Shown one piece after another: positions 8,595 to 59,635 of a DNA stretch of 60,677 nt. Source of the DNA: an uncultured virus (IMG/VR IMGVR_UViG_3300027754_000050) (Duplodnaviria; Heunggongvirae; Uroviricota; Caudoviricetes); IMG/VR virus record IMGVR_UViG_3300027754_000050. One strand, given 5' to 3'. Under the pieces are notes generated by a model. The model saw nothing but the letters and a program-made list of their open reading frames with translations. It made no database searches and was not told the origin of the DNA. The stretch's first letter is position 1, and the number at the start of each line of letters is the position of its first letter. A program made the position numbers and the translations under genes.

Positions 8595-8726
8595 CGCTAA
8601 AATCCTTTGGTGTCTTAACTATAAGATAAGGTACAATTAAATAATATCAACGGCAGAAAGTCTGTATTCTCTGGCTTTTTCTTCCAACCGAGAGGCGGTG
8701 CCTTCGTTTATTTCGCCAATATCATT

Positions 8727-8939
8727 CTAACTATTTCTGGGTCTTCCACGGTACTGTGGCATCTCCTCTAAGCGATTTTTCTCAGCAGCGACTTCTTCGT
8801 GATCCGTACTGTGCCCCCCGATCCCTAGGCACGCTTCGGAGTCAAGCACTGAAAGCATCAGTCCACCGTCGTCAACATAGACATGTGCGTCTTTTGGGAG
8901 GGTGTTAAGCCATCTCTTCAGTTCTTTTGCTGTGATCAT
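8727..8939 (-). CDS. hypothetical protein
   Basis: 70-aa ORF. Confidence 0.7.
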   Translation of the reverse strand: MITAKELKRWLNTLPKDAHVYVDDGGLMLSVLDSEACLGIGGHSTDHEEVAAEKNRLEEMPQYRGRPRNS

Positions 8940-8976
8940 GTCTCAATAAATTCCTTTGTTACAAGATAAGGTACAA

Positions 8977-9225
8977 TTAAATAACATCAACGGCAGACAG
9001 TCTGTATTCTCTGGCTTTTTCTTCCAACCGAGAGGCTACCTCGTTGTATGCATCGGCTTTGGACTTGCGACTCAGCATCCGGTGGTAACCAGAACCCCGT
9101 CCTTGTTCTCCTTTGCGTCTGGCATAAACGAAGTGGTCATCTTCTCGTAATAGTTCAAGTTCCACTACGGATAAATCCCACGTGATGATCCAGATTGTTT
9201 CCCTAGGAGATTTCATGACTCCCAA
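8977..9225 (-). CDS. hypothetical protein
   Basis: 82 aa; stop inside the motif. Confidence 0.65.
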   Translation of the reverse strand: MGVMKSPRETIWIITWDLSVVELELLREDDHFVYARRKGEQGRGSGYHRMLSRKSKADAYNEVASRLEEKAREYRLSAVDVI

Positions 9226-9324
9226 TCGTTAGAATAAATATCGTAGATGCCAACATCGTCATATTCGGTATCCATCGTATTCTCCGTTAACGTGTCTTAA
9301 CTCTACACTATAAGGTACAAATAT

Positions 9325-9795
9325 TTATTCTATGCTGGAATTAAGGAAGATTGTACTTTCCCCGTATTTTGCGATGATCTTAGCCATGAGTTCTGGCGAA
9401 AACGCTCCAATTGCTGTATCATACTCACCATCGGAGTATTTTACATTTGGTTTTCTGAAAAGCACTTTATTTTTACAAAGTTTTTTCAAATATTTATTCT
9501 CCAAAATATCTTGAAGTAGTGTTTCAACGACTGTTTCGCCGGTTTGCGGAGAATATCGGTTTTTATGACCGATAAAACTCTCACAAACTTCTGCTAGGTC
9601 TACAGGTGGTAGGGTTGCAGCATATTCATCCAAAGTTATTCGGAATGAGTTTGGGAAGATGCTTGTGTTGCCGCCCTTTCCATCGTTCGATGCAGAGCCC
9701 ATTTTTACACCGTCAACGTAAATGCTGCACTCGAAGCATTCTGTTTCTTGGCTACCAAGTGCAGAGTGTTTAACATTTTTAAGTACGATATTCAT
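9325..9795 (-). CDS. phage hypothetical protein (SxETxCF...NDGxGG)
   Basis: 156 aa filling the interval between two motif copies. Confidence 0.8.
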   Translation of the reverse strand: MNIVLKNVKHSALGSQETECFECSIYVDGVKMGSASNDGKGGNTSIFPNSFRITLDEYAATLPPVDLAEVCESFIGHKNRYSPQTGETVVETLLQDILENKYLKKLCKNKVLFRKPNVKYSDGEYDTAIGAFSPELMAKIIAKYGESTIFLNSSIE

Positions 9796-10271: not shown

Positions 10272-10324
10272 GCTTAATTCCTTATGAAAGGTATCCCGTC
10301 ATCCTTACATACTATAAGGTACAA

Positions 10325-10504
10325 TTAATTATTAGATTCAATCCAATGCACGGGTTTGCCCTCTTCCGCAAAGTCGGCAAGTACCATAGCTCTTGCTGCG
10401 GCTTCGGTATTGGCTTGTTTGCTGCAACCATATTTTTGGTGATCGTCTTCTGAATCATCATCGTATCTGTCCTCAGACATAACCGTAAAGTAGAATGTTT
10501 TCAT
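10325..10504 (-). CDS. hypothetical protein
   Basis: ATGA-coupled; stop inside the motif. Confidence 0.6.
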   Translation of the reverse strand: MKTFYFTVMSEDRYDDDSEDDHQKYGCSKQANTEAAARAMVLADFAEEGKPVHWIESNN

Positions 10505-17324: not shown

Positions 17325-18440
17325 TTATTCTTCATCGTTGTTTTGTTTGTAGACGAGTTGCTCGATTCTACAATCTCTGCTCTCGATGTCGTTTCTTACG
17401 CCCAAAAATGTTGGCTGGAAAAGCGATCCTCCCACAAAAGCGTAAAGATAACGAACCTCCACAATGTCATTTATTTTTGGAACATCAAAGTTTGCTGGGA
17501 TCGATACATTCCCAACAGGCTCATACTCGGTTCCTCCTGCATACAAACCAATTCCTACGCTTCTTTTTTGATTCGTTACCGTCACGATACAACTACAAGT
17601 CTTGTAAAACTTGTGCTTGAGATAGTTGCCACCGCTTGCTGGTCTTCCAACCGTATAGAATGCACTGCGGTGTTTCAGTACAATTCCCTCTCCGTTGTCT
17701 CGCTTGATTTCTTCCCACAGTTTCTTTTTCTGTTCAGTGGACGCAGCAACGTCCACAAAAATGACATTCTCAGAAATTCCGAACACCTCTTCATCTTTTC
17801 CGATGCTGATAATAGCATGGTTCGCAAACATCTTTTTGAGAATGGCGATTCTGTTCTTTACACTTTTGTCTTGTACGCTTTCGCCTTGGTATGACAATAT
17901 GTCGAAAACGTAGTACGTTTCACCGATCAATTCCCCATCTACTGTGCAATTATCTAGGGGTGCAAACCCTTTCTGAATAACGTGCGGCACAGACACAACA
18001 TTTCCTTTGCGGTTGTATCCTGTGATTTTGTCCTCGTTCTTTTTTAGTGTTAATCGTGTGCCGTCGAACTTTTCTTGAGCGTACCAATTGTCATTGGAAA
18101 GCAAGATATATGCTGCTTCTTCCTCGATTGCGTTTAGCAGTACGCACATAGCAGCAGTTTTGGTATTTGGCAGCACCGTTGGGATACCTTCTTCGTTATC
18201 ATCAAAAACTTGGTATCCCTTTTTCTTTTTTTCGTTTACGAGTTTTTCGTGAACGATTTCAGCCTTTTTTAGATCAACAGGGGAACTTGTTTTTGTGCCA
18301 GTATTCATACTGGCTCCTCTTCGACCGTATGCGAAGTTCACACTGTATCCCGATGCTTCATCGCCTTCGATGGTTGCTTTGTAGACTTTATCACTGCTTC
18401 CCTCTTTGAAATAGAGCGAAACGCTTTTAATAGTTTTCAT
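17325..18440 (-). CDS. WGR-domain ATP-dependent DNA ligase-like protein
   Basis: N-terminal SDKVY...YGRRG (WGR-like); QEKFDG, DGELIG, VFDIL, EGIVLK, LKHK; OB-like C-terminus. Confidence 0.85.
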   Translation of the reverse strand: MKTIKSVSLYFKEGSSDKVYKATIEGDEASGYSVNFAYGRRGASMNTGTKTSSPVDLKKAEIVHEKLVNEKKKKGYQVFDDNEEGIPTVLPNTKTAAMCVLLNAIEEEAAYILLSNDNWYAQEKFDGTRLTLKKNEDKITGYNRKGNVVSVPHVIQKGFAPLDNCTVDGELIGETYYVFDILSYQGESVQDKSVKNRIAILKKMFANHAIISIGKDEEVFGISENVIFVDVAASTEQKKKLWEEIKRDNGEGIVLKHRSAFYTVGRPASGGNYLKHKFYKTCSCIVTVTNQKRSVGIGLYAGGTEYEPVGNVSIPANFDVPKINDIVEVRYLYAFVGGSLFQPTFLGVRNDIESRDCRIEQLVYKQNNDEE

Positions 18441-25669: not shown

Positions 25670-26995
25670 TTACGTGTCTCTGTCTTCTTCATAGAGATAT
25701 TTAAAAGTTGGAAATCTTAGGCTAATGCCGCCTTTTTCATTCGTTGTTTCCTCAAAATACTGCACATTTATAAGTTTTCCCACAATATTGGAGGGATTTT
25801 TATAAAATTCTTGTCTTTGTTCCACCGAGAATCCTGATCCAACTCCAACGTAGTTGTTTTTATGAAGAATTATAACGCTGGAAAGCATAGTTTCTTCACA
25901 TTCCTTGCCATCCTTAATGTATCTGAATGGCCCCATCTCTGTGTTTACAACCTCGTATTCTGCGTCAGAAAAGGCTTTATATTTTAACAGGTCTTTTGAC
26001 CGTTTACCTTTGTATGGCTTGTCTGCACGAAGCATGAGCCCTTCCCATCGACTCACGCTTGATACTTCGATAAGGGTTTTAAAAGCATCATCATTTTCTA
26101 CCAGTATTTGTTCTAAAACAGTTAAACACAGTCCAGAGTTTTTATCCATAATTTCTTTGAGTTTATTAAATCTATTCCCAAAGGCATTATTGACTTTGCC
26201 TTTTTGGGTGTAAAATTCATCCTGACTCAAAATATCAAACAACTTATACGATGGATTTGGTATTGTGTGGTCTTTCTTGCGTAATTCTTTCATTACTCCT
26301 TGAAAATCTTCATTTCCAAGACTGTCCACTAAGCACAGTTCTCCATCTAGCACAACATTATTAACTCCTAAATCCTTAATGGCATCCGCAACAACTCCAA
26401 GAGTATAAAATGGCTTGCCTGTGCGAGAAAAGAAGGATGCGTTTCCAGTGCTGTCAACTATGGCAATACATCTCACACCATCAATTTTACGACTAACATA
26501 CCAACCATTATCCCAATTCACATTTTTAGCGTCATATTTATCTGCCAAAGCAACTTCAAAAGTAGGAATAAGGTCTGGAACAACCTTATTTATGATTTTA
26601 TCTCCTGCTCTCGTCTTTAGGTCTTTATCGAGTATGTTATGAATTAGTTCTTTGTGCTCAGGGTACTGTGAAACAAATGTATTAACTGCTCCGATAGCAT
26701 CATGTCCAGTAATGGTTCTGTTCTTTAGATCATCTAAAAGAACAAAAATATCTTTCTCCTGTGGTCGAAGAGCATGTGCCACCAATTCGCTCTTTTTTAG
26801 CAAGTTATCGCTTGTAACAAAGAATTGATACGTTGGATGATAAACGTATTGTATAAGCCTGAGTAAATCTTGGCTATGATAATTGGTTACTAAGTGTTTT
26901 TTCAGAATAGCAATCTTATCATTGCTACTGCTAGTTCCCTTGAGTTCCTCTACAAGGGTGCTCAAATCTTTCAACAACGATCTTGTATCTTGCAT
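25670..26995 (-). CDS. ATP-dependent DNA ligase (T4 gp30-like)
   Basis: SRKIDGVRC, LDGEL, FDIL, EGLMLR, LLKYK, VGSGF, SLRFP. Confidence 0.92.
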   Translation of the reverse strand: MQDTRSLLKDLSTLVEELKGTSSSNDKIAILKKHLVTNYHSQDLLRLIQYVYHPTYQFFVTSDNLLKKSELVAHALRPQEKDIFVLLDDLKNRTITGHDAIGAVNTFVSQYPEHKELIHNILDKDLKTRAGDKIINKVVPDLIPTFEVALADKYDAKNVNWDNGWYVSRKIDGVRCIAIVDSTGNASFFSRTGKPFYTLGVVADAIKDLGVNNVVLDGELCLVDSLGNEDFQGVMKELRKKDHTIPNPSYKLFDILSQDEFYTQKGKVNNAFGNRFNKLKEIMDKNSGLCLTVLEQILVENDDAFKTLIEVSSVSRWEGLMLRADKPYKGKRSKDLLKYKAFSDAEYEVVNTEMGPFRYIKDGKECEETMLSSVIILHKNNYVGVGSGFSVEQRQEFYKNPSNIVGKLINVQYFEETTNEKGGISLRFPTFKYLYEEDRDT

Positions 26996-27546
26996 TTTAG
27001 TCTCTTTTGTTTTGTCACCCGTATACCCTTTAAGGTACAATATTTTTTTGCACCTAGATACTTCTTCACATATTTATCCGAACTATCAATCATGCCAAAA
27101 ACTATCATTTTGTTGTGCATGGTTGACGGCAACCGACCTTTAATCACATCTTTTGCGTAAGTGTACAGCCAACATGGGCACATCACGGCTAGTTCTGGTG
27201 TCCAGATGCATCGGAGTACATCTTTTGCATACAGATAAGACAACTCTGAATCTTTTATTATTGCGGCTTCTCCAAGTTCGAATCTTCCGCCTATTACATC
27301 TTTTGCATAAAAAGAAGAACACCATGCATCGGCACTTATCGCAGCTTCGCCAAGATGGAATCGAGCTTTTAATACCTGTCTTGCATAATAAAAAGAATAA
27401 TATGTATGTTGGCTGATAATCTGTTCTAGCGATTCACGATCCTTATGGTTAGGATCGCCGGATAATATCTCATACGCTTGATGTGCGTCGGAAAACCAGG
27501 GACCTCGCGCAAAAGCTACCGGTGCCGGTCGAAAAACTTTAATCAT
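26971..27546 (-). CDS. 26-aa repeat family protein (dispersed paralog)
   Basis: YA..VI.GRF.LGEAAI repeats plus GRLP..MHNKM C-terminal module. Confidence 0.85.
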   Translation of the reverse strand: MIKVFRPAPVAFARGPWFSDAHQAYEILSGDPNHKDRESLEQIISQHTYYSFYYARQVLKARFHLGEAAISADAWCSSFYAKDVIGGRFELGEAAIIKDSELSYLYAKDVLRCIWTPELAVMCPCWLYTYAKDVIKGRLPSTMHNKMIVFGMIDSSDKYVKKYLGAKKYCTLKGIRVTKQKRLKCKIQDRC

Positions 27547-29283: not shown

Positions 29284-29727
29284 TTACACAGATTTAAAAA
29301 GATATTCGTCGTTGCCGTGTTTCTCAAAAAAATCGTTTAAAAGTTGTTCGCCAGCATCGTCATCGCCATCAACTCTAGCCCAAGCATCGCCCTGCCGTGC
29401 TCCAATTTGAAGGCAATTGAAAAACACGTTCTCGCATTTGTTGCCAAATCTTTCCTCGATAAACATCTTTATTTCATCAAGCAACACTTCCTCGTCATAA
29501 GCATCGCCATTAGTATATGTCAGCGACGTAGGACAGATACTAATGTCAATAACAAAGGCATCTACCCCAACACAGTAGGGTTTTGTTAGAGGCTTTTCTT
29601 TTTCACTAAACGCATTGTTCAGAAACGCAGCCAACGCTTCCTGCTCCGTTCGATAAAGTTCTGTACGAAGATTATCAAACGCCACTGAATCTGCATAATA
29701 TGTTATCATAACCCTTTTCCTATCCAA
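29284..29727 (-). CDS. hypothetical protein
   Basis: 147 aa; start abuts the motif (alternative ATG at about 29709). Confidence 0.7.
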   Translation of the reverse strand: MDRKRVMITYYADSVAFDNLRTELYRTEQEALAAFLNNAFSEKEKPLTKPYCVGVDAFVIDISICPTSLTYTNGDAYDEEVLLDEIKMFIEERFGNKCENVFFNCLQIGARQGDAWARVDGDDDAGEQLLNDFFEKHGNDEYLFKSV

Positions 29728-29742
29728 TAAGGTACAATTAAA

Positions 29743-30453
29743 TTACCGTGCCCACTTCGGAGGAATAGAGTCTTGGTTAGAAGACTCACAATGCGTCTGT
29801 AATTGCGGTTTATACGAAAACGAGTCAGACGGTGGAATACTGGCTCCGTATTGATTCGTTGCTGCCCTAATTATTCGTATAACATCGATTGCGTCACTCA
29901 AACCATCATGTTGCACACACTCCTCCAAACCGCTTCTTGACTTGCAGTCTGAAAGACCGGGCAACGCATTGTCCTTCGACCAATCTGCGACTAAAATAGC
30001 TGGATCAAGTATGCGGCTACGGATTTTAACTTTAGACTTCCAGTTTGGAATGAGTGTTTCTAGCCAGACTTTATCGAACGCTGCAAAGTTTTTCCCAGCA
30101 GCATTTATGATAACTCTTTCTTCATCCGTTTCACATCCACACGATCTACACCAATCAGAAAAAACTACCGCCACATAAGATATATTTAAAATGTTATGTT
30201 TCTTTCGATAGTCAACTCGTTTTTCTTTTTTTGTTGTTTGTAAATTTGCAATGATCTCAATTAGTCTATGGTTCATATTGATTGCAAAAGCCGAACCAGT
30301 TATACAAGGATTCTCAACGATACAATTAAACTTTGGCAACTCAGAAATTGGGATGACATTATTTGTATCTTCTGCAACTGCACCAATTTGTAGAATTTGG
30401 CAAGTGTTGATGTCCAACCCAGTTGTCTCAAGATCAATTGAAATGTATTTCAT
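29743..30453 (-). CDS. DEDDh 3'-5' exonuclease
   Basis: IDLETTG, GKN..AFD, LDPA, HDGLSDA. Confidence 0.88.
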   Translation of the reverse strand: MKYISIDLETTGLDINTCQILQIGAVAEDTNNVIPISELPKFNCIVENPCITGSAFAINMNHRLIEIIANLQTTKKEKRVDYRKKHNILNISYVAVVFSDWCRSCGCETDEERVIINAAGKNFAAFDKVWLETLIPNWKSKVKIRSRILDPAILVADWSKDNALPGLSDCKSRSGLEECVQHDGLSDAIDVIRIIRAATNQYGASIPPSDSFSYKPQLQTHCESSNQDSIPPKWAR

Positions 30454-30527: not shown

Positions 30528-31607
30528 TTACATACTAATCGCCTTCTGCAAATGGTCGCCGTGCTTGTCGAACCATTTTTCACCGTTTGGCACAGTTACA
30601 ATCAGTTGCTTCAAATCTTCGCCGCCTTGAAGCAAGCAATACCGCATGAAGACCATCGCAGGCTCACCAGACATATTATTGATTGCCTGCCCGAAACAAT
30701 TATCAACTATTGACTTTGTGGCTTTTCCACGAAGCAGATGAATAGCGAGTGCCGATGCAACCGCATAGCTCAAGGTGACATTCTTGTTGTCTTGCTCAAA
30801 CTTTGACTTGCCCTCAATAATATCTAGGATATTGGGGATGCTACTGCATACCGCTTGATAAGCCATGAACTCGTTTGCCACAGGCCCAACAATCGAACGA
30901 ACATCACTAAGTTCCCGTTGGTCTGCCTTGAGGCGTTGAGAAACATAATACCATGAACGTGGACTCGGATTTGCACCTTCATCATCTAGGCTAGGCTGGA
31001 TGAGCATATCAGGCTTGAAGTTGATAAACCCGATAACATCTGGATGAACATCATGGGTAACAGCCCAGTTGCTCCAAGAGTCCATATCTGGCTCATAATG
31101 GTAGATCGCAAATCGCTGACGCAAAGCAGCAGAAATAGGATGAACATGAGCCTTGTCGCAACTCTTGTTTCCAGCAGCAACAATATACCAATCTCGTCCA
31201 AGCGTATGCGAACCAACCTTACGATCAAGTACAAGTTGCAGAGCTGGATTCTGTACGCTAGGAGGTGCAGTGTTGATTTCGTCTAGGAAGAGAATACCTT
31301 TCCCTTCAAACGGAATGAACTCTGGACGAACCCATTCTACCTGTGTTGGGTTGCCGTTCGCATCCTTTTTAATCACCGGCAGTCCACGCATATCAATAGA
31401 GTCTAGCGTGTTCAACCGAAGATCAATCATGGTATCGCCATCTTCAAGAGCATCATAAACTTGCTCGGACTTGCCGCTGCCAGGTGCACCAAAAATCATC
31501 ATTGGCAAACCTTGACCCTTACTCGTGCGAACCGCTCGACAGCGTCGGATTTCCTTGACAAGACTGCCGGTGATAGGATTCCCAGATTGAAGCAATTTCT
31601 CTGACAT
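30528..31607 (-). CDS. MoxR-like AAA+ ATPase
   Basis: GAPGSGKS, LFLDEIN, AAGN, AL..RF, PSPRSW. Confidence 0.9.
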   Translation of the reverse strand: MSEKLLQSGNPITGSLVKEIRRCRAVRTSKGQGLPMMIFGAPGSGKSEQVYDALEDGDTMIDLRLNTLDSIDMRGLPVIKKDANGNPTQVEWVRPEFIPFEGKGILFLDEINTAPPSVQNPALQLVLDRKVGSHTLGRDWYIVAAGNKSCDKAHVHPISAALRQRFAIYHYEPDMDSWSNWAVTHDVHPDVIGFINFKPDMLIQPSLDDEGANPSPRSWYYVSQRLKADQRELSDVRSIVGPVANEFMAYQAVCSSIPNILDIIEGKSKFEQDNKNVTLSYAVASALAIHLLRGKATKSIVDNCFGQAINNMSGEPAMVFMRYCLLQGGEDLKQLIVTVPNGEKWFDKHGDHLQKAISM

Positions 31608-34871: not shown

Positions 34872-36179
34872 CTACCCTTCGTATGGCACATTGACGCGAA
34901 CAACTTCTCCGAATGGAGGAACTACATTTGACGTTAAAACCCACAAGGTTTCAAATGGTGGTTTTTCGTCGCCAAAGTTACCCTCGCCATCCGTAAAAAA
35001 GCAACAATAATCTGGCCTGATCCGTTCACGAATCAAATGGTTGAAAACAGGAACGAAATCAGTTCCACCACCACCGCTAAGAGTTGGCAATTCTTCGTGC
35101 GGCATAATCCATTTGCTGCTATGCAGATCGGCATCACAAGCAATGAAATACACCTGTGCTTGAAACTTTTTCCGTATGTCTTCAAGTTCGCTCATAGCCT
35201 GTGTCAGATCAGTTTCGCTCATGCTTCCGCTTGTGTCAACAGCATACACAATTTTTGGAGATGCCGGGCCAACATTGCTTGGGAAAATAAAGTCTGCACC
35301 GAGAAACCTACGATTTGGGGTACTCCAACTTGTGTCTCGCTTTTCAACACGACTCACTCCGTAGCGTAACTTCTGTCGAAGTGCTGCCATCCAATCAATT
35401 TGTGGTCGAAGTAATTTTCTAATAGCCCGATCAAAATCGGCTGGCAACTTGCCCTGTGTTTTTGCAACAGCATACGCCTCTTGTGTTCCAGCCTTGACCC
35501 AATCAGATATGATTCTTTGAGCCTCTGCTTTTGTTTTGCCCGAAGTGTCTGGCAGAGGAACCCTACGCTCTCGACCAGTTACGCTACCATTACCGATAGC
35601 ATCATCATCCAAATCTTTCATATCATCATCATTGCTATCTTCATTTTCTTTTTCTTCATCCTTGATTTTCTCGTAGATAGATTCGGCACTCATACCCTCA
35701 TACTGTTCGTCAAGGCAACCACCCTCAATAAAGAATTCGGGGCTTTTTTCAAATTGATAATGAAGCAAAAGGTTGATCGCATAATCACAAGCCTTATTGA
35801 AAATATGGTGATCTCGCATTCCCTTACGGGAGGCGTGTTCAAAAGCGAAGTGACTAATCTCATGGGCTACAAGAAACAAGACTTTCTTGTAATAGAGTTT
35901 CCCATGATCTTGTCGCAGCTTTTCAAGAAAGTCCACATTAAAAAGAATATGTCCGGTCGCTGTAATTCCCGCAGTAGGAACCAATGTCTTGGTTAAAGAA
36001 AACGTGCATCTTTCGCTAATCACACCCCAAAAAGGAAACTCCAAAGAATACTTGCAGGTAATAACATCAATATCAGCACGAAACTTCTTAAAATCTTCTT
36101 GCTCAATTTGCAAAGATTTTAAGGCATCAGACACAACGCTGTTTTCTGACGATACTTTTGGGGCTTTAGTTCTTGGCAT
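34872..36179 (-). CDS. DUF2201-like metallopeptidase plus vWA domain protein
   Basis: HEISH, N.ACD.AIN, DTSGS MIDAS, GGGGTDF, FTDG. Confidence 0.88.
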   Translation of the reverse strand: MPRTKAPKVSSENSVVSDALKSLQIEQEDFKKFRADIDVITCKYSLEFPFWGVISERCTFSLTKTLVPTAGITATGHILFNVDFLEKLRQDHGKLYYKKVLFLVAHEISHFAFEHASRKGMRDHHIFNKACDYAINLLLHYQFEKSPEFFIEGGCLDEQYEGMSAESIYEKIKDEEKENEDSNDDDMKDLDDDAIGNGSVTGRERRVPLPDTSGKTKAEAQRIISDWVKAGTQEAYAVAKTQGKLPADFDRAIRKLLRPQIDWMAALRQKLRYGVSRVEKRDTSWSTPNRRFLGADFIFPSNVGPASPKIVYAVDTSGSMSETDLTQAMSELEDIRKKFQAQVYFIACDADLHSSKWIMPHEELPTLSGGGGTDFVPVFNHLIRERIRPDYCCFFTDGEGNFGDEKPPFETLWVLTSNVVPPFGEVVRVNVPYEG

Positions 36180-36719: not shown

Positions 36720-37160
36720 TTAAAACCATTCCACCACATCTTTGGGTCTCACAGTTGTCATCTCAATGTCATGTTCTATACCTGCAATGGTCGCAAAATA
36801 CTCCTTCACCCACTCGTCGGAACTGTCCATTATACCAAATGCCAGCATTTTTCGGTGCATAATGTCTGGCAATCGTCCTTGGATTGCCCATCGTGAGTAA
36901 AAAAAAGACATTTCTGCACTCGTACTTATCGCAGCTTCGCCAAGCACGAATCGACCGCCGATTATCTCTACTGCATAATGGTAAGAATAATATGCACTCG
37001 TACTTATCGCAGCTTCACCAAGTTCCCATCGACACTGTTTTACAGCTATTGCATAGCAATAAGAAGCATCTGCTTCCCCACTGATAATCTGCTCCAGTGA
37101 TTCACGATCCTTATGGTTCTTGTCTTCACATAGTTTTCTATAAGCTTGTTCTGGATTCAT
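36720..37160 (-). CDS. 26-aa repeat family protein
   Basis: Tandem paralog. Confidence 0.85.
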   Translation of the reverse strand: MNPEQAYRKLCEDKNHKDRESLEQIISGEADASYCYAIAVKQCRWELGEAAISTSAYYSYHYAVEIIGGRFVLGEAAISTSAEMSFFYSRWAIQGRLPDIMHRKMLAFGIMDSSDEWVKEYFATIAGIEHDIEMTTVRPKDVVEWF

Positions 37161-37722
37161 TTTTAGTGTCCTTACGCTTTAAGGTACAAACTTTTCCAAA
37201 ATACTTCTTCACATCTTTGTCAGAACTGTCCGTTATACCAAATGCCAGCATTTTTCGGTGCATAATGTCTGGCAATCGTCCTTGTATTACATCTATTGCA
37301 TATAAATAAGACCATCTTGGGGCGGCTTGACTTATCGCGGCTTCGCCAAGTTCCCATCGTCCTTCGATTACATGTCGTGCATAGAAGTAAGACGATCTTG
37401 CTTCTTGACTTATCGCAGCTTCGCCAAGTTCGAATCGACCCTTGATTACATGATTTGCATAGTTAAAAGAAGTATATGCATCCTCGCTTATTGCAGCTTC
37501 ACCAAGTACGAATCGTTCGTGGATTACATATTTTGCATATTCACACGAATATTCTGCGTCCTTGCTTATGACATATTCACCAAGTACGAATCTTCCTTTG
37601 ATTACATGTTCTGCATAAAGACAAGAATATTCCGCACTTGTGCTAATAATCTGTTCTAGTGCGTCACGATCCTTATGATTAGGATCTTTATGCAATATAT
37701 CATATGCCCAATTTGGATTCAT
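37138..37722 (-). CDS. 26-aa repeat family protein
   Basis: Tandem paralog. Confidence 0.85.
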   Translation of the reverse strand: MNPNWAYDILHKDPNHKDRDALEQIISTSAEYSCLYAEHVIKGRFVLGEYVISKDAEYSCEYAKYVIHERFVLGEAAISEDAYTSFNYANHVIKGRFELGEAAISQEARSSYFYARHVIEGRWELGEAAISQAAPRWSYLYAIDVIQGRLPDIMHRKMLAFGITDSSDKDVKKYFGKVCTLKRKDTKNESRTSL

Positions 37723-38218
37723 TTTTAGTGTCCTTACGCTTTAAGGTACAATACTTTTTAGATCCTAGATACTTCTTCACATATTTGTCTGAACTGTCAA
37801 TTATACCAAATGCAATCATTTTATTGTGCATTACGGTTGGCAATCGTCCTTTGATCACATCTTTTGCGTAAATGTACAGCCATGCTGGACACTTCATTGC
37901 GAGTTCTTCTGTCCAATTTCTTCTGATAACATACTTTCCATACCAATATGAATAATATTCATATTTACATATTGTTTCTTCTGCAAGTTCGAATCGCCCA
38001 TGGATTACATTTCTTGCATAACCACAAGAATAACCTGCATTTTTGCTTATAGCAGCTTCGCCCAGTACGAATCGGCCTACCATACCCCGACGACAACATA
38101 CATTTCTTGCGTAAAGATAAGAATACTTAGAATGTGTGCTGATATCCCGCTCTAGATATTCCAGATTTTTATGGTTGTTGTTTTTTCGTAATGTTTTATA
38201 AGCTTGTTCTGGAGTCAT
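37700..38218 (-). CDS. 26-aa repeat family protein
   Basis: Tandem paralog. Confidence 0.85.
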   Translation of the reverse strand: MTPEQAYKTLRKNNNHKNLEYLERDISTHSKYSYLYARNVCCRRGMVGRFVLGEAAISKNAGYSCGYARNVIHGRFELAEETICKYEYYSYWYGKYVIRRNWTEELAMKCPAWLYIYAKDVIKGRLPTVMHNKMIAFGIIDSSDKYVKKYLGSKKYCTLKRKDTKNESKLGI

Positions 38219-38238
38219 TTTTAGTGCCCTTCCTTACA

Positions 38239-39093
38239 CTATAAGGTACAATACTTTTTAGATCCTAAATAACGCTTCACATATCTGTTCGAACTATCAA
38301 TCATACCAAAAACTAGCATTTTGTTGTGCATGGTTGTTGGTAGCCGTCCTTTGCTCACATCTTTTGCGTAGAGATAAAGCCATATAGGACACATCACGGC
38401 TAGTTCTTGCGTCCAATTTCCTCGGACCAAATCATTTGCATAAAAATTAGCATAAACTTCTTTTTTGCTTATCGCAGCTTCGCCAAGTTCGAATCGACCG
38501 CCTATTACTTCTTTTGCATAATAATAAGAAGCGTCGGCATCTTTGCTTATTGCATCTTCACCAAGTTCCCATCGCCCGCCTATTACCTCTTTTGCATACC
38601 ACTGGGACCATCTTGCTTTTTGACTTATCGCAGCTTCGCCAAGTATGAATCGTCCGCCTAATACATTTGTTGCATACTCATAAGAATGAATTGCGTCCTC
38701 GCTTATCACAGCTTCGCCAAGTTCGAATCTTCCTTCGATTACATGTTCTGCATAAAGACAAGAAACTAATGCATCCTCGCTTATTGCAGCTTCACCAAGT
38801 ACGAATCTTCCTTTGATTATATATCTTGCATACCAATAAGAATGTTCTGCATCCTTGCTGATAGCCTCTTCGCCAAGCATGAATCGACTTTCGATTGCAT
38901 ACTTTGCATACTGATAAGAATGCATTGTACTTTTGCTTATTGTAGCTTCGCCAAGTATGAATCTTCCTTGAACTACACTACTTGCATACTCCACAGAATA
39001 TTCTGCGTCCTCGCTTATAATGTGCTCCAGTGATTCACGATCCTTATGGTTCTGGTCTGCACATAATTTTTCAAACGCTTGATTTGGATTCAT
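38239..39093 (-). CDS. 26-aa repeat family protein (about 7 full repeats)
   Basis: Tandem paralog. Confidence 0.88.
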   Translation of the reverse strand: MNPNQAFEKLCADQNHKDRESLEHIISEDAEYSVEYASSVVQGRFILGEATISKSTMHSYQYAKYAIESRFMLGEEAISKDAEHSYWYARYIIKGRFVLGEAAISEDALVSCLYAEHVIEGRFELGEAVISEDAIHSYEYATNVLGGRFILGEAAISQKARWSQWYAKEVIGGRWELGEDAISKDADASYYYAKEVIGGRFELGEAAISKKEVYANFYANDLVRGNWTQELAVMCPIWLYLYAKDVSKGRLPTTMHNKMLVFGMIDSSNRYVKRYLGSKKYCTL

Positions 39094-39817
39094 TTTTAGT
39101 GTCCTTACGCTTTAAGGTACAATACTTTTTAGATCCTAAATAACGCTTCACATATTTGTCCGAACTATCCATTATACCAAAGGCTATCATTTTATTGTGC
39201 AGTACGGTTGGCAATCGACCTTTGACAACATCTTTTGCGTAAATGTATAGCCATGCTGGACACATAGCGGCGAGTTCTGGCGTCCAGTCTCGGATCGCAC
39301 ATACTGCGTAACGAAAAGACCACAGGGCATCTTTGCTTATCGCAGCTTCGCCTAATACGAATCGTTCGTGGATTATATCCCGAGCATACCAATAAGAATA
39401 CAGAGAACTCTCGCTTATTGCAGATTCGCCAAGTTCGAATCGACCTCCTATTACATGCTCTGCATAAAGACAAGAATATTCAGAACTTTTACATATTGCA
39501 GGTTCACCAAGTATGAATCGGCTTTTCAGTACATATTTTGCATAATAATGAGAATACTCTGCATCTTTGCTGATTGCTTCTTCTCCAAGTTCCCATCGTC
39601 CTTTTATGAAATGTTTTGCATAACGTTCAGCATATTCTGCATTTTTGCTTATTGCAGCTTCACCAAGCATGAATCGACACCTGAGTCTTCCTTCTGCATA
39701 ATTATAAGAATGTTCTGCACTCTCACTGATAATCTGCTCCAGTGATTCACGCTGGCGCTTCGGCAGAAGCCACTGATTATGTCCGCATAATATTCTATAC
39801 GCTATTTCTGGAGTCAT
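39071..39817 (-). CDS. 26-aa repeat family protein (about 5 full repeats)
   Basis: Tandem paralog. Confidence 0.88.
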   Translation of the reverse strand: MTPEIAYRILCGHNQWLLPKRQRESLEQIISESAEHSYNYAEGRLRCRFMLGEAAISKNAEYAERYAKHFIKGRWELGEEAISKDAEYSHYYAKYVLKSRFILGEPAICKSSEYSCLYAEHVIGGRFELGESAISESSLYSYWYARDIIHERFVLGEAAISKDALWSFRYAVCAIRDWTPELAAMCPAWLYIYAKDVVKGRLPTVLHNKMIAFGIMDSSDKYVKRYLGSKKYCTLKRKDTKNESKSSV

Positions 39818-40295
39818 GTTTTAACTTTTTTGCTAGATACTTCTTCACATATTTGTCAGAACTATCAATCATGCCAAAAACTAGCATTTTATTGTGCATG
39901 GCTTTTGGTAGCCGTCCTTTGCTCACATCTTTTGAGTAGAAAAATAGCCAGCATGGACACATCACGGCGAGTTCTTGTGTCCAATTTCCTCGGATTACAT
40001 ATTTCGCATATAGAAAAGCGTAGCGGTCACTTTTACTTATCGCAGCTTCACCAAGTTCGAATCGTGCACCGCAGAAGCCAGAGTCTCCGATTTCTGTATA
40101 CCATACAACCTTATAGCAGCCGGGCCACTTATACCACGGTAATGATGCATTTCTTTCATACGAATATATCGTTCGTCGAAAGCGTGCATAGTTGCAAGAC
40201 CACTTTGCATCACTGCATATTGTGTGTTCTAGTGATTCACGATCCTTATGGTTAGGATCTTTTTCTAAAATAGAAAACGCTATTTCTGGAGTCAT
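39795..40295 (-). CDS. 26-aa repeat family protein with an insertion
   Basis: Tandem paralog. Confidence 0.8.
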   Translation of the reverse strand: MTPEIAFSILEKDPNHKDRESLEHTICSDAKWSCNYARFRRTIYSYERNASLPWYKWPGCYKVVWYTEIGDSGFCGARFELGEAAISKSDRYAFLYAKYVIRGNWTQELAVMCPCWLFFYSKDVSKGRLPKAMHNKMLVFGMIDSSDKYVKKYLAKKLKHDSRNSV

Positions 40296-40313
40296 GTTTA
40301 ATATCTTTACCCT

Positions 40314-40856
40314 TTAAGGTACAATACTTTTTTCTAGATACTTCTTCACATATTTGTCAGAACTATCAATCATGCCAAAAACTAGCATTTTATTGTGCAT
40401 GGCTTTTGGTAGCCGTCCTTTGCTCACATCTTTTGCGTAGAGAAATAGCCAGCATGGACACATCACGGCTAGTTCTTGTGTCCAGCTTCCTCGGATTCGG
40501 ATTACATATTTCGCATACCAAAAAGAATACTCTGCATCTTTGCTTATCGCATCTTCACCAAGTTCCCAGCGACCCTTGATTACATTTATTGCATATTCAT
40601 AAGACAACTCTGCATCCTTGCTTATCGCAGCTTCACCAAGCACGAATCTTCCTTCGATTATATATTTTGCATACCAATAAGACCGCTCTGCACTCTCACT
40701 TATTGCAGCTTCGCCAAGTTTCCAGCGACCCTTGATTACATTTATTGCATATTTGTAAGACCAAAACGCATCACTGCATATTGTGTGTTCTAGTGACTCA
40801 CGATCCTTATGGTTATGATCGTTTTCTAAAATATCATACGCTTGTTCTGGAGTCAT
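40314..40856 (-). CDS. 26-aa repeat family protein
   Basis: Tandem paralog. Confidence 0.85.
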   Translation of the reverse strand: MTPEQAYDILENDHNHKDRESLEHTICSDAFWSYKYAINVIKGRWKLGEAAISESAERSYWYAKYIIEGRFVLGEAAISKDAELSYEYAINVIKGRWELGEDAISKDAEYSFWYAKYVIRIRGSWTQELAVMCPCWLFLYAKDVSKGRLPKAMHNKMLVFGMIDSSDKYVKKYLEKSIVP

Positions 40857-41469
40857 GTTTAGTGTCCTTACGCTTTAAGGTACAATACTTTTTTGCACCT
40901 AAATACTTCTTCACATATTTGTCAGAACTACCAATTATACCAAAAGAGATCATTTTATTGTGCATTACGGCTGGCAATCGACCTTTGACAACATCTTTGG
41001 CGTAAGTGTACAGCCAACATGGGCACATCACGGCTAGTTCTGGTGTCCAGTTTCCTCGGATTACATCTTTTGCATAGTCATAAGACAACTCTGCCTCTTT
41101 GCTTATTGCAGCTTCTCCAAGTTTGAATCGCTCCCAGATTATCTCTTTTGCATACCAATAAGAATACCATGCATTCTCGCTTATTGCAGCTTCTCCAAGT
41201 TCGAATCGACCGCCTATTACCCATTCTGCATACTGGTAAGAATATTCATCACTCGTACTTATCGCAGCTTCACCAAGTACGAATCGCCTCTTTATTACAT
41301 TTCTTGCAAGATCCCAGGAATTTTCTGCATTCATAACATATCGTGCATATTTATAAGAACATTCTGCATCGCTGCACAGTGTTTGTTCTAGTGCTTCACG
41401 ATCCTTATGCAGTGGCTCGTTGCGTAATATTCCATACGCTGCTATTTCTGGAGTCATTTTGCCATACAT
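40834..41469 (-). CDS. 26-aa repeat family protein
   Basis: Tandem paralog. Confidence 0.85.
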   Translation of the reverse strand: MYGKMTPEIAAYGILRNEPLHKDREALEQTLCSDAECSYKYARYVMNAENSWDLARNVIKRRFVLGEAAISTSDEYSYQYAEWVIGGRFELGEAAISENAWYSYWYAKEIIWERFKLGEAAISKEAELSYDYAKDVIRGNWTPELAVMCPCWLYTYAKDVVKGRLPAVMHNKMISFGIIGSSDKYVKKYLGAKKYCTLKRKDTKHDSRTSV

Positions 41470-44634: not shown

Positions 44635-45132
44635 ATGAAATGCTCAAATTGCGGTTCTTCAGTGAAAAGACTTCCATCTGAAATAAGAAAGAGCAAGTCT
44701 GGAAATTCGTTTTGCTCAAAGTCTTGTGCGGCTGTTTTTAACAACAAGAAATATCCAAAAAGACATAGAACTAGAAGATGCGACATCTGCAATGAACTTG
44801 TTCGGTCGGATAGCAAGTATTGCAGTGGTTGCTATAGAAGAAAACACTACCTAGAAGACAAAACTTTGGCCGAGGCAACAGCAGATCGCAAAGACAATAA
44901 CAGGTACACATCTATAAGACAAGTGTCTAGGAAAACATATTTGAGATCAAATAAACCAAAGTGCTGTGCCGAATGCGGGTATAGCAATCACATAGAAGTA
45001 TGCCACATTAGAGATATACCTGACTTTCCTCCCTCTGCTTTGGTGCGGGAAATAAACGACTTGAGCAATTTGATAGCCCTTTGTCCCAATCACCATTGGG
45101 AATTTGACAATGGCTTGATTGAAAATAAATAG
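44635..45132 (+). CDS. HNH endonuclease with N-terminal zinc fingers
   Basis: FCS.SC, C..CGY..HIEVCHI...N...NL..LCPNHH.EFD. Confidence 0.88.
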   Translation: MKCSNCGSSVKRLPSEIRKSKSGNSFCSKSCAAVFNNKKYPKRHRTRRCDICNELVRSDSKYCSGCYRRKHYLEDKTLAEATADRKDNNRYTSIRQVSRKTYLRSNKPKCCAECGYSNHIEVCHIRDIPDFPPSALVREINDLSNLIALCPNHHWEFDNGLIENK

Positions 45133-45203
45133 GCTCGGAGGGAATCGAACCCCCAATTTCATCGATTATGAGTCGAGTCCTTTAACCGTTAAGGTACGAG
45201 CCC
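45130..45203 (-). tRNA. tRNA with CAT anticodon (probably Ile2, possibly Met)
   Basis: GGGCTCG..TCGA-CTCATAA-TCGA..GGTTCGATT..CGAGCCT-A; adjacent to tilS. Confidence 0.88.
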
Positions 45204-45247
45204 AATTTGTTCTAGCGATTGAGACGAATCCCAAGTAGGAGCAGATT

Positions 45248-51370: not shown

Positions 51371-51402
51371 ACGATTCTCCTATCCTATAAGGTACAATAA
51401 AT

Positions 51403-52320
51403 TTATGCGCCATAACCGGTTGGGATCGCACTTATTTTCTTCCTGTGCACTATTGAACCACGCCGAACACGTATTTTTGGAATTTTACGTCCAACCCCTG
51501 TCCAATACAGTGCTGCAAGGCATGGACCACGAAGATGAGGTGAGATTTCTATACTTTTGCCAACACTCCAACCTACCTTACCTCGACCGTGTGCCCTAAC
51601 AATATACTTTTCATCATGACATGCTTCGAATTTGGAAACATCTCCATTCAACACCTCTGGCACTACAACTTCAGGATCAGAAGCCAATAAGCATACAGTA
51701 CAGATTAAACGTGTAATGTCTCGTATAATATCTTCTGGATACAGAACTCCATCACTGCTAGAATCATGTGCAGGAATGTTCGTCAAACTCCATTCTATAG
51801 TTTTCCCTGTTTCACATAAAATATGCTTATAAAGAACACGACGTAATCCATCCCCTATGATTTCATTTATGTCTACCCAAAAACTAATTGCTCGTACCGG
51901 CTCACAAAAAGGTTTATGAAGATACGAGTTTTCACACAATATGCTACAAATACGATGTTCTTTGTCGCCATGCATGAATCGTAAAGGATGATTCTCATTC
52001 ACAGGAAGCCGTAACAATAAAGTATCCACCGGCAACCGGAAATAACCAGAATCAACATCTAACTTTATCCGCAATAATGCAGGAATAATACCTGGATATA
52101 TATCATAATACGGACGCCGTGATTCGATCCACCGCTGCTCAAGAGTTAAAAGAGCAGGAGTAAAAGGATCTAGGTCAGACAGTTCCTTGTATCCAAGATC
52201 CCGTGCTTGAGCCTCCATCCGGTCCAAATAACTCCTCGTGAAAACCTGTACGTTTTCTGTGTGAGGCATTTTTTTGCCCTTGCCCCAATTGAAATGAGTC
52301 TCATAATCATGAAATTTCAT
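51403..52320 (-). CDS. hypothetical protein
   Basis: 305 aa; PH.R...W.G.GR C-terminal pattern. Confidence 0.8.
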   Translation of the reverse strand: MKFHDYETHFNWGKGKKMPHTENVQVFTRSYLDRMEAQARDLGYKELSDLDPFTPALLTLEQRWIESRRPYYDIYPGIIPALLRIKLDVDSGYFRLPVDTLLLRLPVNENHPLRFMHGDKEHRICSILCENSYLHKPFCEPVRAISFWVDINEIIGDGLRRVLYKHILCETGKTIEWSLTNIPAHDSSSDGVLYPEDIIRDITRLICTVCLLASDPEVVVPEVLNGDVSKFEACHDEKYIVRAHGRGKVGWSVGKSIEISPHLRGPCLAALYWTGVGRKIPKIRVRRGSIVHRKKISAIPTGYGA

Positions 52321-56848: not shown

Positions 56849-56858
56849 TTTTCGCACC

Positions 56859-57866
56859 CTATAATATACTTTTAAATTTATTAAAGATATATTCATTGAA
56901 AAGATTCATTATATTCTTTGGAGTATAGTATGAATACGCATTCCAGTCGCATCTTGAACTTATTATGTTTCTGATATTAGTGAATATTGAAATCAAAGAT
57001 TCCTCATTAGTGTAAATTATAGCCTTATCGCCCAGTATACGAACGTGTTCAAGGTCGCCGGTTAGGGATGTTATAACAGGCTTATTTCGTACGGAGAACT
57101 CTGCAACTGCTAATCCGAATGTTTCACCATCGGCTCTTGCATGTATCATTGCATCGCATGTGTTTACAAACTTTACCTTAAAACCACAATCGATGGATTT
57201 ATTGCAGTAAATGATATTTTTATGAACAGCAAAAACTTTTGTATTCATGAATAGAAAATAAACATTATGATCAGCGTGCTCCGAATTTAAATAAGATATT
57301 ACTGCAGAAACACCGAATTCTAAGTTGAATTGGTAATATCCTCCATATCTTCCGATAACAATAGCATTCTGAGGAATTCGGTACTCGTTTCGCAGGTTTT
57401 CATGGGATACAGGTTCTGTGGAAACGATATGCGGTATTACTGGAATCTTAGTATGGTACTTATCGTTTAGGTATTCTGAAATGCTAATATGGAAATCACC
57501 TTCGGGGCAATTTGTTTTGAATACACAATGTTTTATAGTTTTACAATTTTGCCATATTTCTTTATTATGAAAGCGATAAAAATCTTTTTCTTCTTTTCCG
57601 TGTGTTAGAGTGTGGAAGAAATTTATTTTGTTATATCTTATTACACTTGAAATATCTCGAATATCTTTTATTTCGTGTGCCCCGAATCGAGATTTGAATT
57701 TATAGTAAACGTCTTTATTGTCTTCATTTTTTAATGGCATGTGGACTATGAATGATTTATTTCCCAGTATTTCCTCATTATACTTGGCATAATCATATAT
57801 TGCTATTTCCGTACCTCTTTCGCTCCATCCTTTAACATAAAATATAACATTGTTCGTTTTTGCCAT
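56859..57866 (-). CDS. GT-B (GT4-like) glycosyltransferase
   Basis: RGTE.A.YDYA, HAR.DGETFGLAVAEF...KPVIT. Confidence 0.85.
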   Translation of the reverse strand: MAKTNNVIFYVKGWSERGTEIAIYDYAKYNEEILGNKSFIVHMPLKNEDNKDVYYKFKSRFGAHEIKDIRDISSVIRYNKINFFHTLTHGKEEKDFYRFHNKEIWQNCKTIKHCVFKTNCPEGDFHISISEYLNDKYHTKIPVIPHIVSTEPVSHENLRNEYRIPQNAIVIGRYGGYYQFNLEFGVSAVISYLNSEHADHNVYFLFMNTKVFAVHKNIIYCNKSIDCGFKVKFVNTCDAMIHARADGETFGLAVAEFSVRNKPVITSLTGDLEHVRILGDKAIIYTNEESLISIFTNIRNIISSRCDWNAYSYYTPKNIMNLFNEYIFNKFKSIL

Positions 57867-57869
57867 ATT

Positions 57870-59108
57870 TTATTGTGTTTTAATTTTTTGCGGGAAATCG
57901 TTTGTGGAGTGGCAATTATTAGCGTTATTAACAATTAAGGTTGTACTTCTTGCGGTAACACGCACCAAATTTTTGACTCTGGGATCTGGTCTGAATTCTA
58001 GTTTTTTCCCATGCACATCCATGAGTATGAATGCTCCACTTGTTCTTTTGCCCATTACGAACGCTATTTTACCTTTGTATAAGACTTTATCAAATTTTCT
58101 AAATCCATGCAATTTTCCGGTTGGAATTTTAATTTCTGAACGTCTTCCTTTATTCTGTTGATAATCACCGCCTGCTACGTTTTTCAAGGTAAAGCAGTTT
58201 GCCGGTTGTACATTGAGAGCGGCAGATGCATTATTGAGTGCGGAATGTGGTAGATTTAACTTTATTCTTTGTGCTTTAACTTGAAAGCCATAAATATTTT
58301 GTACGGGTACATTTTTGAAATCTAGGTATTTTCTAATAATAGCACAAACTGTATCTTGTTTTGCTGTTTTATGAACGACATTTCCTATTTTAATAGATAC
58401 TCCTTTGTGAAGATCTACATGACACTTTTTGCATAGTGTTACAAGGTTAGTAAGAGTATCCGGACCATTTTGACTTCTTGGTATAATGTGATGGGCATGG
58501 AGTTCTGTTCTGCCTGCTTTACAACATCTACATTTATATCCATCTCGTTTAAAGACCTTGCTTTGAATGTTAAGCCATTTCTCATCCGGTTTTCCATTCC
58601 ACTCTTCGGCGGTTGCAGATTTTACAGTATACCATGAAGCGATAGGAAGTATACTTTGTACTCGTTTTATTTCTCGAAGGTGTGATTGTAGTTTGCTATT
58701 AATAGTAGGATTGTGAAGCCAATTTCTAATTCTGTTGTTGAATCTTGCCTGTCTGTACCGTGTTTTTCTGTTTCTTCTCGTGCGGCGGTAATTGGATCGT
58801 TTTTCCATATTACCTGAAACGTTCGTTCTTGGTTCTGTGGCTGAAGAAAATAAACAAACTTCACCGCATTTTGCAGCGATTCCTATTACATATGAGCTTG
58901 GAATACATGCTGCTACAACACTTTGCACCTCATTTTTACATGGGAAGCGCAGTTTAATAGTATAAGGGCACTTTGATACTACTCTTGCTTTCTCTGCTTT
59001 TAACAAATGCCGTGCTTTCGCCTGTGTTGTTGGCATAAGCGGGTTTCCATGTACGTTCTGCACAAAAACGTGGTTAATAACAGGTTTAATAGTTTTCACC
59101 TCGTTCAT
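57870..59108 (-). CDS. iscB: IscB-family (RRXRR plus HNH) protein with degenerate RuvC
   Basis: PLMPT, RRTRRNRKTRYRQARFNNR bridge helix, HHIIPRS..G.D...NL.TLC..CH, GFR.FD.V. Confidence 0.88.
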   Translation of the reverse strand: MNEVKTIKPVINHVFVQNVHGNPLMPTTQAKARHLLKAEKARVVSKCPYTIKLRFPCKNEVQSVVAACIPSSYVIGIAAKCGEVCLFSSATEPRTNVSGNMEKRSNYRRTRRNRKTRYRQARFNNRIRNWLHNPTINSKLQSHLREIKRVQSILPIASWYTVKSATAEEWNGKPDEKWLNIQSKVFKRDGYKCRCCKAGRTELHAHHIIPRSQNGPDTLTNLVTLCKKCHVDLHKGVSIKIGNVVHKTAKQDTVCAIIRKYLDFKNVPVQNIYGFQVKAQRIKLNLPHSALNNASAALNVQPANCFTLKNVAGGDYQQNKGRRSEIKIPTGKLHGFRKFDKVLYKGKIAFVMGKRTSGAFILMDVHGKKLEFRPDPRVKNLVRVTARSTTLIVNNANNCHSTNDFPQKIKTQ

Positions 59109-59110: not shown

Positions 59111-59503
59111 TGTTTTCCTGAAAGGGTAATATTTATACTTCAGAAACAGAAACAGCTTGACAGGCGGAAGCCCCAAACTCTCCCATCATTTTGTATACCA
59201 TCGAAAGATTATTAATGCCGGAAAAAACCGACCGAGAAATCTACCTTCTGCATGATGCCGAAGAAACTCGAAATGCCTGTTTTCAAACTTTTACCATTTA
59301 AAACTTAGGACTTCCTCTCGATAATGTTATCTAGCCTTAATATGTGGTCTGACTGAGAAAGTCTAAGACTCTCTCTGTTTACAGAGTCACGAAAACATTG
59401 CTACGAACTGAGGCGGCATTCGTAGGTTTCTCTATGCTAAATAACGTAGCTTTTATTTCTAAAAACTTAATCTGGTATAAATATTACCCCTTTTAGGAAA
59501 ACA
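59111..59503 (-). ncRNA. omegaRNA (OMEGA/HEARO-like) upstream of iscB
   Basis: ACCAGATTAAG, CTACGTTAT, CCTCAGT, TAAACAG, ATAACATT.TCGAG blocks recalled as typical; ends joined by an inverted repeat; boundaries approximate. Confidence 0.7.
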
Positions 59504-59606
59504 AAAATACCCGCAGGTGACAAAAACACCGTCTGGTCCGCTCGCCCCCGCCACAACATAAGGTGTGCCGCAACAAATCGAGACAGCGATCCTGGTGCTC
59601 CCCACG

Positions 59607-59635
59607 ATTTTACCTTATGTTATGATATTTGTCAA
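59607..59635 (-). promoter_or_regulatory. sigma70-type promoter upstream of omegaRNA/iscB
   Basis: TTGACA-17-TAAAAT. Confidence 0.7.

Follow-up and report, generated by a model that had tools for sequence, protein, structure and literature searches.

What does an RNA-guided nuclease do for a phage once one of its two catalytic sites has been lost? The question is raised by an open reading frame (ORF) at 57870..59108 (−) of a 60,677-nt (60.7 kb) stretch of DNA from an uncultured Caudoviricetes virus (IMG/VR IMGVR_UViG_3300027754_000050); this whole stretch is referred to below as the window. The 412-residue product (P0001) is an IscB with a dead RuvC site and an intact HNH site and, together with an omegaRNA specified upstream, it constitutes a complete IscB-omegaRNA module (OMEGA) borne by a large lake phage. 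In the reading we favor, to which we assign a probability of about one half, the module would be an RNA-guided target-strand nickase serving either the homing and maintenance of the element or phage competition.

Judged by its sequence and modeled fold, P0001 is a true IscB. It exceeds the cut-off of the NCBIfam equivalog model guided_IscB (RNA-guided endonuclease IscB; 195.9 bits, cut-off 175) and matches the Pfam families RRXRR (131.9 bits) and HNH (45.3 bits). A sequence search of solved structures returned IscB chains as the best matches (E 3.7e-24 and weaker), with 11 distinct sequences at E <= 0.01. The AlphaFold2 model, for which a 130-sequence alignment was the input, has a mean predicted local distance difference test score (pLDDT) of 88.7 and a predicted template modeling score (pTM) of 0.87, and each of its ten best Foldseek matches in the PDB is an IscB or IsrB complex (E 7.2e-26 to 1.7e-16). 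The modeled protein possesses the PLMP region, a split RuvC domain with an inserted HNH domain, and a C-terminal domain. The preliminary description of this locus, which was made from the nucleotide sequence alone, had reported an uninterrupted ORF with PLMP and bridge helix intact, and all three statements hold: the gene is one open frame of 412 codons, and both the PLMP motif (P23-L24-M25-P26; 59031..59042, −) and the Arg-rich bridge helix are retained. This architecture is that of the canonical IscB-omegaRNA systems of IS200/IS605 elements, typified by OgeuIscB (PDB 7xht, 7utn, and 8csz), with which the locus also shares an upstream HEARO-type omegaRNA possessing a 5′ guide.

The resemblance to OgeuIscB ends at the RuvC active site. 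HMMER alignment to the OgeuIscB chains sets VVAACIPSSY opposite LVLGIDPGRT, such that the catalytic Asp column of RuvC-I (VAACIPSS, residues 65-72; 58893..58916, −) is occupied by I69. In RuvC-II (SWYTVKSA, residues 158-165; 58614..58637, −), where canonical relatives read W.VE.ASFD.H, V162 occupies the Glu column and a deletion of 9 residues adjoins it. In RuvC-III (HSALNNAS, residues 288-295; 58224..58247, −) LPHSALNNA lies opposite the canonical LPKTHYNDA, which puts A290 and N293 in the His and Asp columns, and a second deletion, of 7 residues, follows. None of the four catalytic residues (D, E, H, D), which we take to be D61, E193, H340, and D343 in OgeuIscB, is therefore present. Alignment to the characterized protein thus confirms the loss at all three motifs that the preliminary description had read alongside an intact HNH; its choice of H288 as the catalytic His does not stand, since that residue aligns with a Lys column. 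Most members of the 130-sequence alignment keep the RuvC-I Asp (110/130), the RuvC-III Asp (120/130), and the His (109/130), so the loss cannot be put down to the way this family usually aligns. That RuvC might still be active through acidic residues at shifted positions is extremely improbable. An AEEW stretch (E168, E169) follows the first deletion, but it is not conserved among the closest relatives, where VEGY, KKDY, VKGY, and VDGH are found instead; the deletion itself removes part of the Glu-bearing segment, no acidic residue occurs within the three motifs of P0001, no invariant Asp or Glu specific to the clade of these relatives was found in the RuvC segments, and we found no support for such a shift.

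The HNH domain (residues 193-235; 58404..58532, −) is complete, with C193, C196, H206, H207, N221, C226, C229, H230, and H234 accounting for all of the catalytic His/Asn/His and zinc-binding residues. Counting from the alignment to the solved chains, H207 corresponds to OgeuIscB H247, presumably an HNH catalytic residue. Conservation was judged over sets of 27, 16, and 14 sequences. Among 14 strain variants of the window protein the five His and Asn residues and the four cysteines are invariant, as are the RuvC-dead positions I69, V162, A290, and N293; in 16 members of the wider clade, these HNH residues show no or almost no variation, save at the third zinc cysteine (C226), a column that holds Asp in 6/16 members and Cys in the window protein. 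In the IscB family HNH cuts the strand complementary to the guide and RuvC cuts the other, hence a protein restricted to HNH would be a natural target-strand nickase. Anatomy therefore lends good support to the RNA-guided nickase proposed in the preliminary description: the RuvC site is lost, the HNH site is kept, and, as detailed below, the omegaRNA is structurally conserved and occurs in RNA libraries.

The same description had offered a DNA binder as the other possible function. An RNA-guided binder or repressor that does not cleave is unlikely, even though the loss of one nuclease site could signal a relaxed need for double-strand cutting and TnpB has been domesticated in just this manner, giving rise to the nuclease-dead TldR (10.1101/2023.11.30.569447; PMC13565253). 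Like the window protein, TldR is an RNA-guided nuclease of transposons whose RuvC has been inactivated and which selection retains (10.1101/2023.11.30.569447); there, however, no nuclease site is left and the guides are conserved and directed at promoters, whereas here the HNH is intact and the guides differ at all 10 loci. Neither a fully dead nuclease nor a conserved, promoter-complementary guide is found in the window IscB, and because the HNH catalytic and zinc residues persist over clade and strain variants, bar the third cysteine, binding without cleavage is the weaker half of the earlier proposal.

The RuvC-dead trait defines one clade under purifying selection. P0001 has 1146 homologues at E <= 1e-10; among the best 120 of the 1146, P0002 is 97% identical, P0003-P0016 are 45-51% identical, and all others reach at most 43%, while an exhaustive representative search added a single clade member, P0122. 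In all 17 clade members the RuvC-I Asp is replaced by I or V, the deletions are shared, and the His is lost; the RuvC-III Asp column contains Asn in 9/17 and still Asp in 8/17. Most of the listed members are 375-416 residues in length. In a tree of 70 rows (quick search), built with the RuvC trait columns included, the 17 RuvC-dead sequences lie on one side of a branch with a Shimodaira-Hasegawa-like approximate likelihood ratio test (SH-aLRT) support of 98, and the stem of the window pair is long (1.24). P0126 and the pair P0131 + P0150, which have Ile or Lys in place of the RuvC-I Asp, sit on separate branches, indicating that RuvC has been lost more than once. P0126 possesses the N-terminal extension of the window protein without its deletions. 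When six related copies were compared in pairs, 14 of the 15 values for the ratio of nonsynonymous to synonymous substitution rates (dN/dS) fell within 0.14-0.28; the near-identical pair gives 0.79 at a dS of 0.014.

Members of this clade account for 3 of 7 viral loci, 10 of 80 kept metagenome loci, and none of 20 genome loci (the best genome locus being 41% identical); since two of them (L003 and L011) are the same in sequence, there are 12 distinct clade loci. A HEARO RNA was detected in all ten that have upstream DNA, at 84-114 bits, which is at or above the gathering score. The genes flanking the clade loci and the window copy are of phage type and include those for tail sheath, RecA/UvsX-like, GIY-YIG, ThyX, QueC, Tad2, and Dam methylase proteins; no Y1 transposase was found among 67 flanking ORFs of the clade loci.

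The guide-bearing RNA of the window had escaped the preliminary description. Its HEARO-type scaffold, placed by an Rfam match, clade alignment, and RNA-library contigs, lies at 59240..59510 (−), upstream of the IscB ORF and on the same strand, with an approximate 3′ bound. The Rfam match (HEARO, RF02033) covers 59306-59487 (−) over the full model with 80.9 bits (E 5.9e-16), and no second HEARO occurs in the window at E <= 0.01. The start given by Rfam is a local misalignment, because the first domain is largely missing from the window RNA, and the actual 5′ end is at 59510. The predicted fold has its P1 stem (GGUAU/AUACC) beginning at 59511/59510, and the identity between strains breaks off at exactly 59510/59511. 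From 59510 onward the RNA is collinear with the omegaRNAs of ten relatives as far as a conserved 3′ hairpin past the Rfam model, which agrees with the remark in a preprint by Meers et al. (10.1101/2023.03.14.532601) that RF02033 omits downstream elements. When it was aligned with 10 clade omegaRNAs, compensatory changes appeared at 42 of 74 predicted pairs. The putative guide comprises the 16-20 nt directly 5′ of the scaffold (59511..59530, −), as its position and the between-strain break in identity suggest. The window contains no guide array, and there are no repeats near the IscB locus. In comparison with canonical IscB loci the 5′ domain of this omegaRNA is shortened, and the transposon end and TnpA are absent. 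Between the omegaRNA and the start codon (window 59139-59194) some variants skip 54 nt (59140-59193), and a 4-nt deletion occurs at 59192.

The locus recurs in lakes. At least 20 sequencing runs hold this stretch wholly or partly, 14 of them with half or more of the sampled words; all are from lake or freshwater samples, distributed over 16 studies, and one is possibly the source sample. Four runs were compared in detail, two of DNA and two metatranscriptomes. In both DNA runs the entire locus is present at an identical position as a variant with 98-99% identity, covering 30/30 and 29/30 bins. Each of the metatranscriptome runs, which come from two studies, yielded one contig, at 59200-59510 and 59240-59510, respectively, with at least 99% identity and no cover elsewhere. 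One of these contigs (X16) terminates in an adapter at 59240, and its 21 letters beyond 59510 are unlike the window; the second breaks off precisely at 59510. Below 59200, one RNA contig departs from the window sequence. The contigs provide good evidence of the omegaRNA in RNA form, and hint weakly at its ends. The IscB ORF and its neighbors lie outside the cover of the RNA contigs, which is no sign of silence.

Between the window and the DNA variant, the IscB gene shows 8 synonymous and 7 nonsynonymous differences, with similar ratios of 5:4 and 4:2 in the neighbor genes. All 14 strain variants keep the frame open, and a length of 412 residues is common to 12 of the 15 cluster members listed. 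Among the 14 variants there are 32 variable protein columns, of which 12 fall in residues 88-113 and 8 in residues 348-382 of the C-terminal region, the part of IscB that presumably reads the target-adjacent motif (TAM).

Elsewhere in the clade the gene travels. Six loci (L001, L009, L002, L012, L013, and L014) are 84-91% identical and end at the same two points; between L001 and L009 the identity is 98.6% across 1511 nt, in flanks that are otherwise unrelated. At its 5′ end the element of the relatives begins with the omegaRNA scaffold itself, at the first base, and because of this the guide consists of flanking DNA and differs at all ten loci. Their 3′ end lies approximately 54 nt past the stop codon and contains the hairpin GGGTCTAAAGACC. 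The 90-kb record that holds L001 (CheckV completeness 19%) also encodes two intact Y1 TnpA proteins (139.7 and 132.9 bits), 35-45 kb from the IscB gene; no TnpA was found in the records of two other relatives that were searched, both of them small fragments. What these relatives show is usual for a non-autonomous IS200/IS605 element, here one with a RuvC-dead IscB, and such an element would be moved by TnpA acting in trans. Two further features of L001 deserve mention. A tRNA gene (5596-5668) ends 27 nt before its scaffold, and tRNA processing could set the 5′ end of the guide. A TnpB-type ORF (8016-9344; OrfB_IS605, 443 residues) lies about 0.8 kb downstream, outside the ends of the IscB element.

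The features of a non-autonomous IS200/IS605 element seen in these six loci are not found in the window copy, which does look immobilized. Its ORF reads through the position matching the element end, and its stop codon lies 3 nt before the ATG of the next gene. None of the 72 window ORFs of at least 100 residues matches Y1_Tnp, and a tblastn search of the window with two phage TnpAs as queries returned a best E of 2.2, in accordance with the preliminary description, which had noted no adjacent tnpA. With both the end hairpin and TnpA missing, classical transposon maintenance is therefore not applicable to this copy. A dead RuvC, a missing end hairpin, and a window devoid of TnpA might also be expected if an IscB insertion sequence were decaying here and had lost its function, and two relatives are indeed damaged, L002 by one in-frame TAA and L015 by an N-terminal frameshift. 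We nonetheless regard decay as very unlikely: the frame stays open among the strain variants, the length is mostly uniform among the cluster members, dN/dS is well under 1, the omegaRNA covaries and is present in RNA libraries, and the AlphaFold2 model is confident.

The region 5′ of the scaffold contains what appears to be a promoter belonging to the locus. A sigma-70-type site (TTGACA-17-TAAAAT; 59607..59635, −) was identified by a consensus scan with 11/12 matches; since such sites as a class are not commoner here than in shuffled sequence (7 observed, 8.0 expected), the assignment rests on the quality and position of the site. Some 3-4 nt after the predicted transcription start begins a strain-variable leader of 87 nt (59511..59597, −), which runs to the scaffold and includes the guide. 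Its G+C content is about 60% by hand count, against 34-38% for the region. In two DNA runs (X2 and X4) the leader is swapped for 52 other letters, with the joint at 59510->59598, and the promoter, upstream gene, scaffold, ORF, and 3′ junction remain collinear across the swap, with flanks that are 98-99% identical. No match to the leader was found in the window, IMG/VR, or GenBank phages. On folding, the leader is predicted to pair with the guide.

These observations invite a different reading, in which the phage itself owns a programmable nickase or recombination initiator, directed at a competitor, at a locus of the host, or at a site in the phage genome itself, with the guide renewed by exchange of the leader cassette. 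We hold this to be possible, and put it forward tentatively. The promoter-like site just ahead of the variable segment, the replacement of leader and guide between strains, the 21 different letters 5′ of the same scaffold in RNA contig X16, the loss of the transposon end, the long stem branch (1.24), and the 8 of 32 variable columns in the presumed TAM-reading region are all consistent with it. On the other hand, no target emerged from any search, the swap is equally well explained by rapid drift of an intergenic leader or by a small insert prone to indels, the window is without a guide array or second omegaRNA, and the behavior of the clade overall is that of a selfish element. The term "domesticated" in the preliminary description is accordingly apt for part of the picture. 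The window copy agrees with it, having no end hairpin, its own promoter, a fixed locus, and a stop codon 3 nt from the next ATG; the RuvC-dead trait does not, being ancestral to a clade of otherwise mobile elements, and no host-beneficial target was found in the guide searches. A more specific scenario, which we consider doubtful, is that in this lake-phage lineage the immobilized HNH-only IscB might be a virus-owned, array-less programmable nickase with its own early-type promoter, whose guide cassette (from transcription start to scaffold) and presumed TAM-reading C-terminal region diversify between strains, and whose targets might be competitors, host DNA, or a start site of recombination-dependent replication.

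The favored reading, that of a target-strand nickase in the service of the element or of phage competition, draws its logic from known elements. IscB and TnpB of IS200/IS605 cut the element-less allele, upon which recombination restores the element (10.1101/2023.03.14.532601; PMC13565253), and the preprint of Meers et al. (10.1101/2023.03.14.532601) sets out this homing logic for IscB-omegaRNA with a HEARO bounded by the right end (RE). By analogy, the most likely role of the clade would be to cut alleles that are without the element, which recombination would then restore or spread, here by means of a nick. The ribonucleoprotein would pair its 5′ guide with DNA beside a TAM, and HNH would cut the target strand only, RuvC being dead. 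In replicating, recombination-proficient phage DNA such a nick may be enough to provoke copying from the element-bearing genome, and the module would then be an RNA-guided nicking device for homing and maintenance. With its transposon end gone, its own promoter, and a fixed locus, the window lineage would therefore persist by vertical descent, by homing, or through an advantage in phage competition; the immobilized copy itself may serve homing between co-infecting phages or a phage-owned use.

Several observations weigh against this reading. No clade member has a known biochemical activity, the nickase function being predicted from anatomy, and nick-only homing is, for IscB, a proposal. The window copy has neither the end hairpin nor the TnpA of the mobile relatives, 2 of the 12 distinct clade loci look damaged, and the HEARO score in the window is 2 bits under the Rfam gathering score (83). 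The RNA evidence consists of assembled contigs, from which level, strand, and true ends are not readable. The searches for targets and empty sites were likewise unfavorable. The 16-mer of the guide has one second match in the window, with 3 mismatches, which is at chance level, and a 22-mer is absent from IMG/VR viral contigs; the guide of L001 has in its own 90-kb record 3-mismatch AT-rich matches only. The leader and scaffold gave no match to GenBank phages in distant mode, a search for an empty site with the upstream flank of L001 returned its own contig only, and no common TAM-like motif was found in the 3′ flanks of the six mobile relatives. For the window, none of 160 IMG/VR loci fetched via two neighbor proteins shares two or more local window proteins or contains an IscB, and they thus supplied no empty site.

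Among known systems, IsrB is also a natural single-strand RNA-guided nickase with an omegaRNA, and the model of P0001 matches DtIsrB (PDB 8dmb) with E 6.1e-20 and template modeling (TM) scores of 0.61/0.75. The two are mirror images: IsrB, which nicks the non-target strand, keeps RuvC and has no HNH, whereas P0001 keeps HNH and would nick the target strand. A second parallel is with the nicking HNH homing endonucleases of phages, such as I-HmuI, which are likewise phage-borne HNH enzymes whose one-strand nick drives their own inheritance; those enzymes recognize DNA by protein, whereas the window IscB would use a guide RNA. The cyanophage enzyme I-PfoP3I reportedly belongs to this class (PMC3428280). 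A paper on Gp16 (PMC12817073) was considered as a precedent and rejected, as it concerns a NinB-HNH fusion.

A RuvC-inactive IscB as such is already in print. Altae-Tran et al. (2023, Science; PMC10910872) describe a RuvC-inactivated, HNH-active IscB beside an inactivated Cas12, "suggesting it functions as a nickase." That protein is linked to the inactivated Cas12 and a helix-turn-helix (HTH) protein, partners that the window copy does not have: none of the 72 window ORFs belongs to the Cas12/TnpB families (OrfB_IS605/Cas12) or is an HTH partner. What is added here is a family of phage-borne representatives. In the literature surveyed, a phage-borne RuvC-dead IscB clade, its mobility, or a leader swap is not described, although supplements to papers might list such variants, and the article of Kapitonov (2016; PMC4810608) contains no mention of "inactiv" or "nick."

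The remainder of the window has the gene set of a very large phage. A conserved intergenic motif occurs at about 40 or more sites in window 1-52400 (e.g., 10299-10327, 29715-29745, and 51375-51405), reading CTATAAGGTACAATTAAA on the + strand and TTTAATTGTACCTTATAG on the coding (−) strand. Most genes in the long block on the minus strand have the motif in front of them, and it resembles a promoter specific to the phage. The block containing the IscB (52-60.7 kb) is without it but for one degenerate copy at 56849-56879. The gene 3 nt past the IscB stop (56862-57866, −) has no family match and has 183 IMG/VR relatives at 35-58% identity, many of them on contigs that bear giant-virus-bin labels or exceed 100 kb. 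At 36800-41450 and 27000-27500 there is a paralogous (−) gene family composed of 78-nt (26-residue) repeats, in up to 34 copies with 60-78% identity, for which no Pfam or PHROG match was found. A free-standing HNH_2 endonuclease ORF of 165 residues (44635-45129, +), on the opposite strand and adjoining tRNA-Met (45129-45204), is likely a homing endonuclease. Two genes resembling ATP-dependent DNA ligases (17328-18440 and 25673-27040, −), one with a WGR domain, are accompanied by a pair comprising an AAA_5 ATPase and a DUF2201 metallopeptidase/VWA protein (30531-31607 and 34875-36179) and by PcfJ-like, ThyX, and PP-loop ATPase genes.

Compact base editors are built on IscB nickases engineered to be RuvC-dead. 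A phage-borne lineage of the same design, natural and under selection, would indicate that target-strand nicking alone is a viable OMEGA lifestyle, and the clade offers a set of ready-made small nickases, as predicted, with matched omegaRNAs. It also makes testable the proposition that for RNA-guided homing in phage genomes a nick is sufficient and no break is required. The window copy, being immobilized, promoter-equipped, and guide-variable, is a candidate intermediate on the way from a selfish element to a virus-owned RNA-guided tool.

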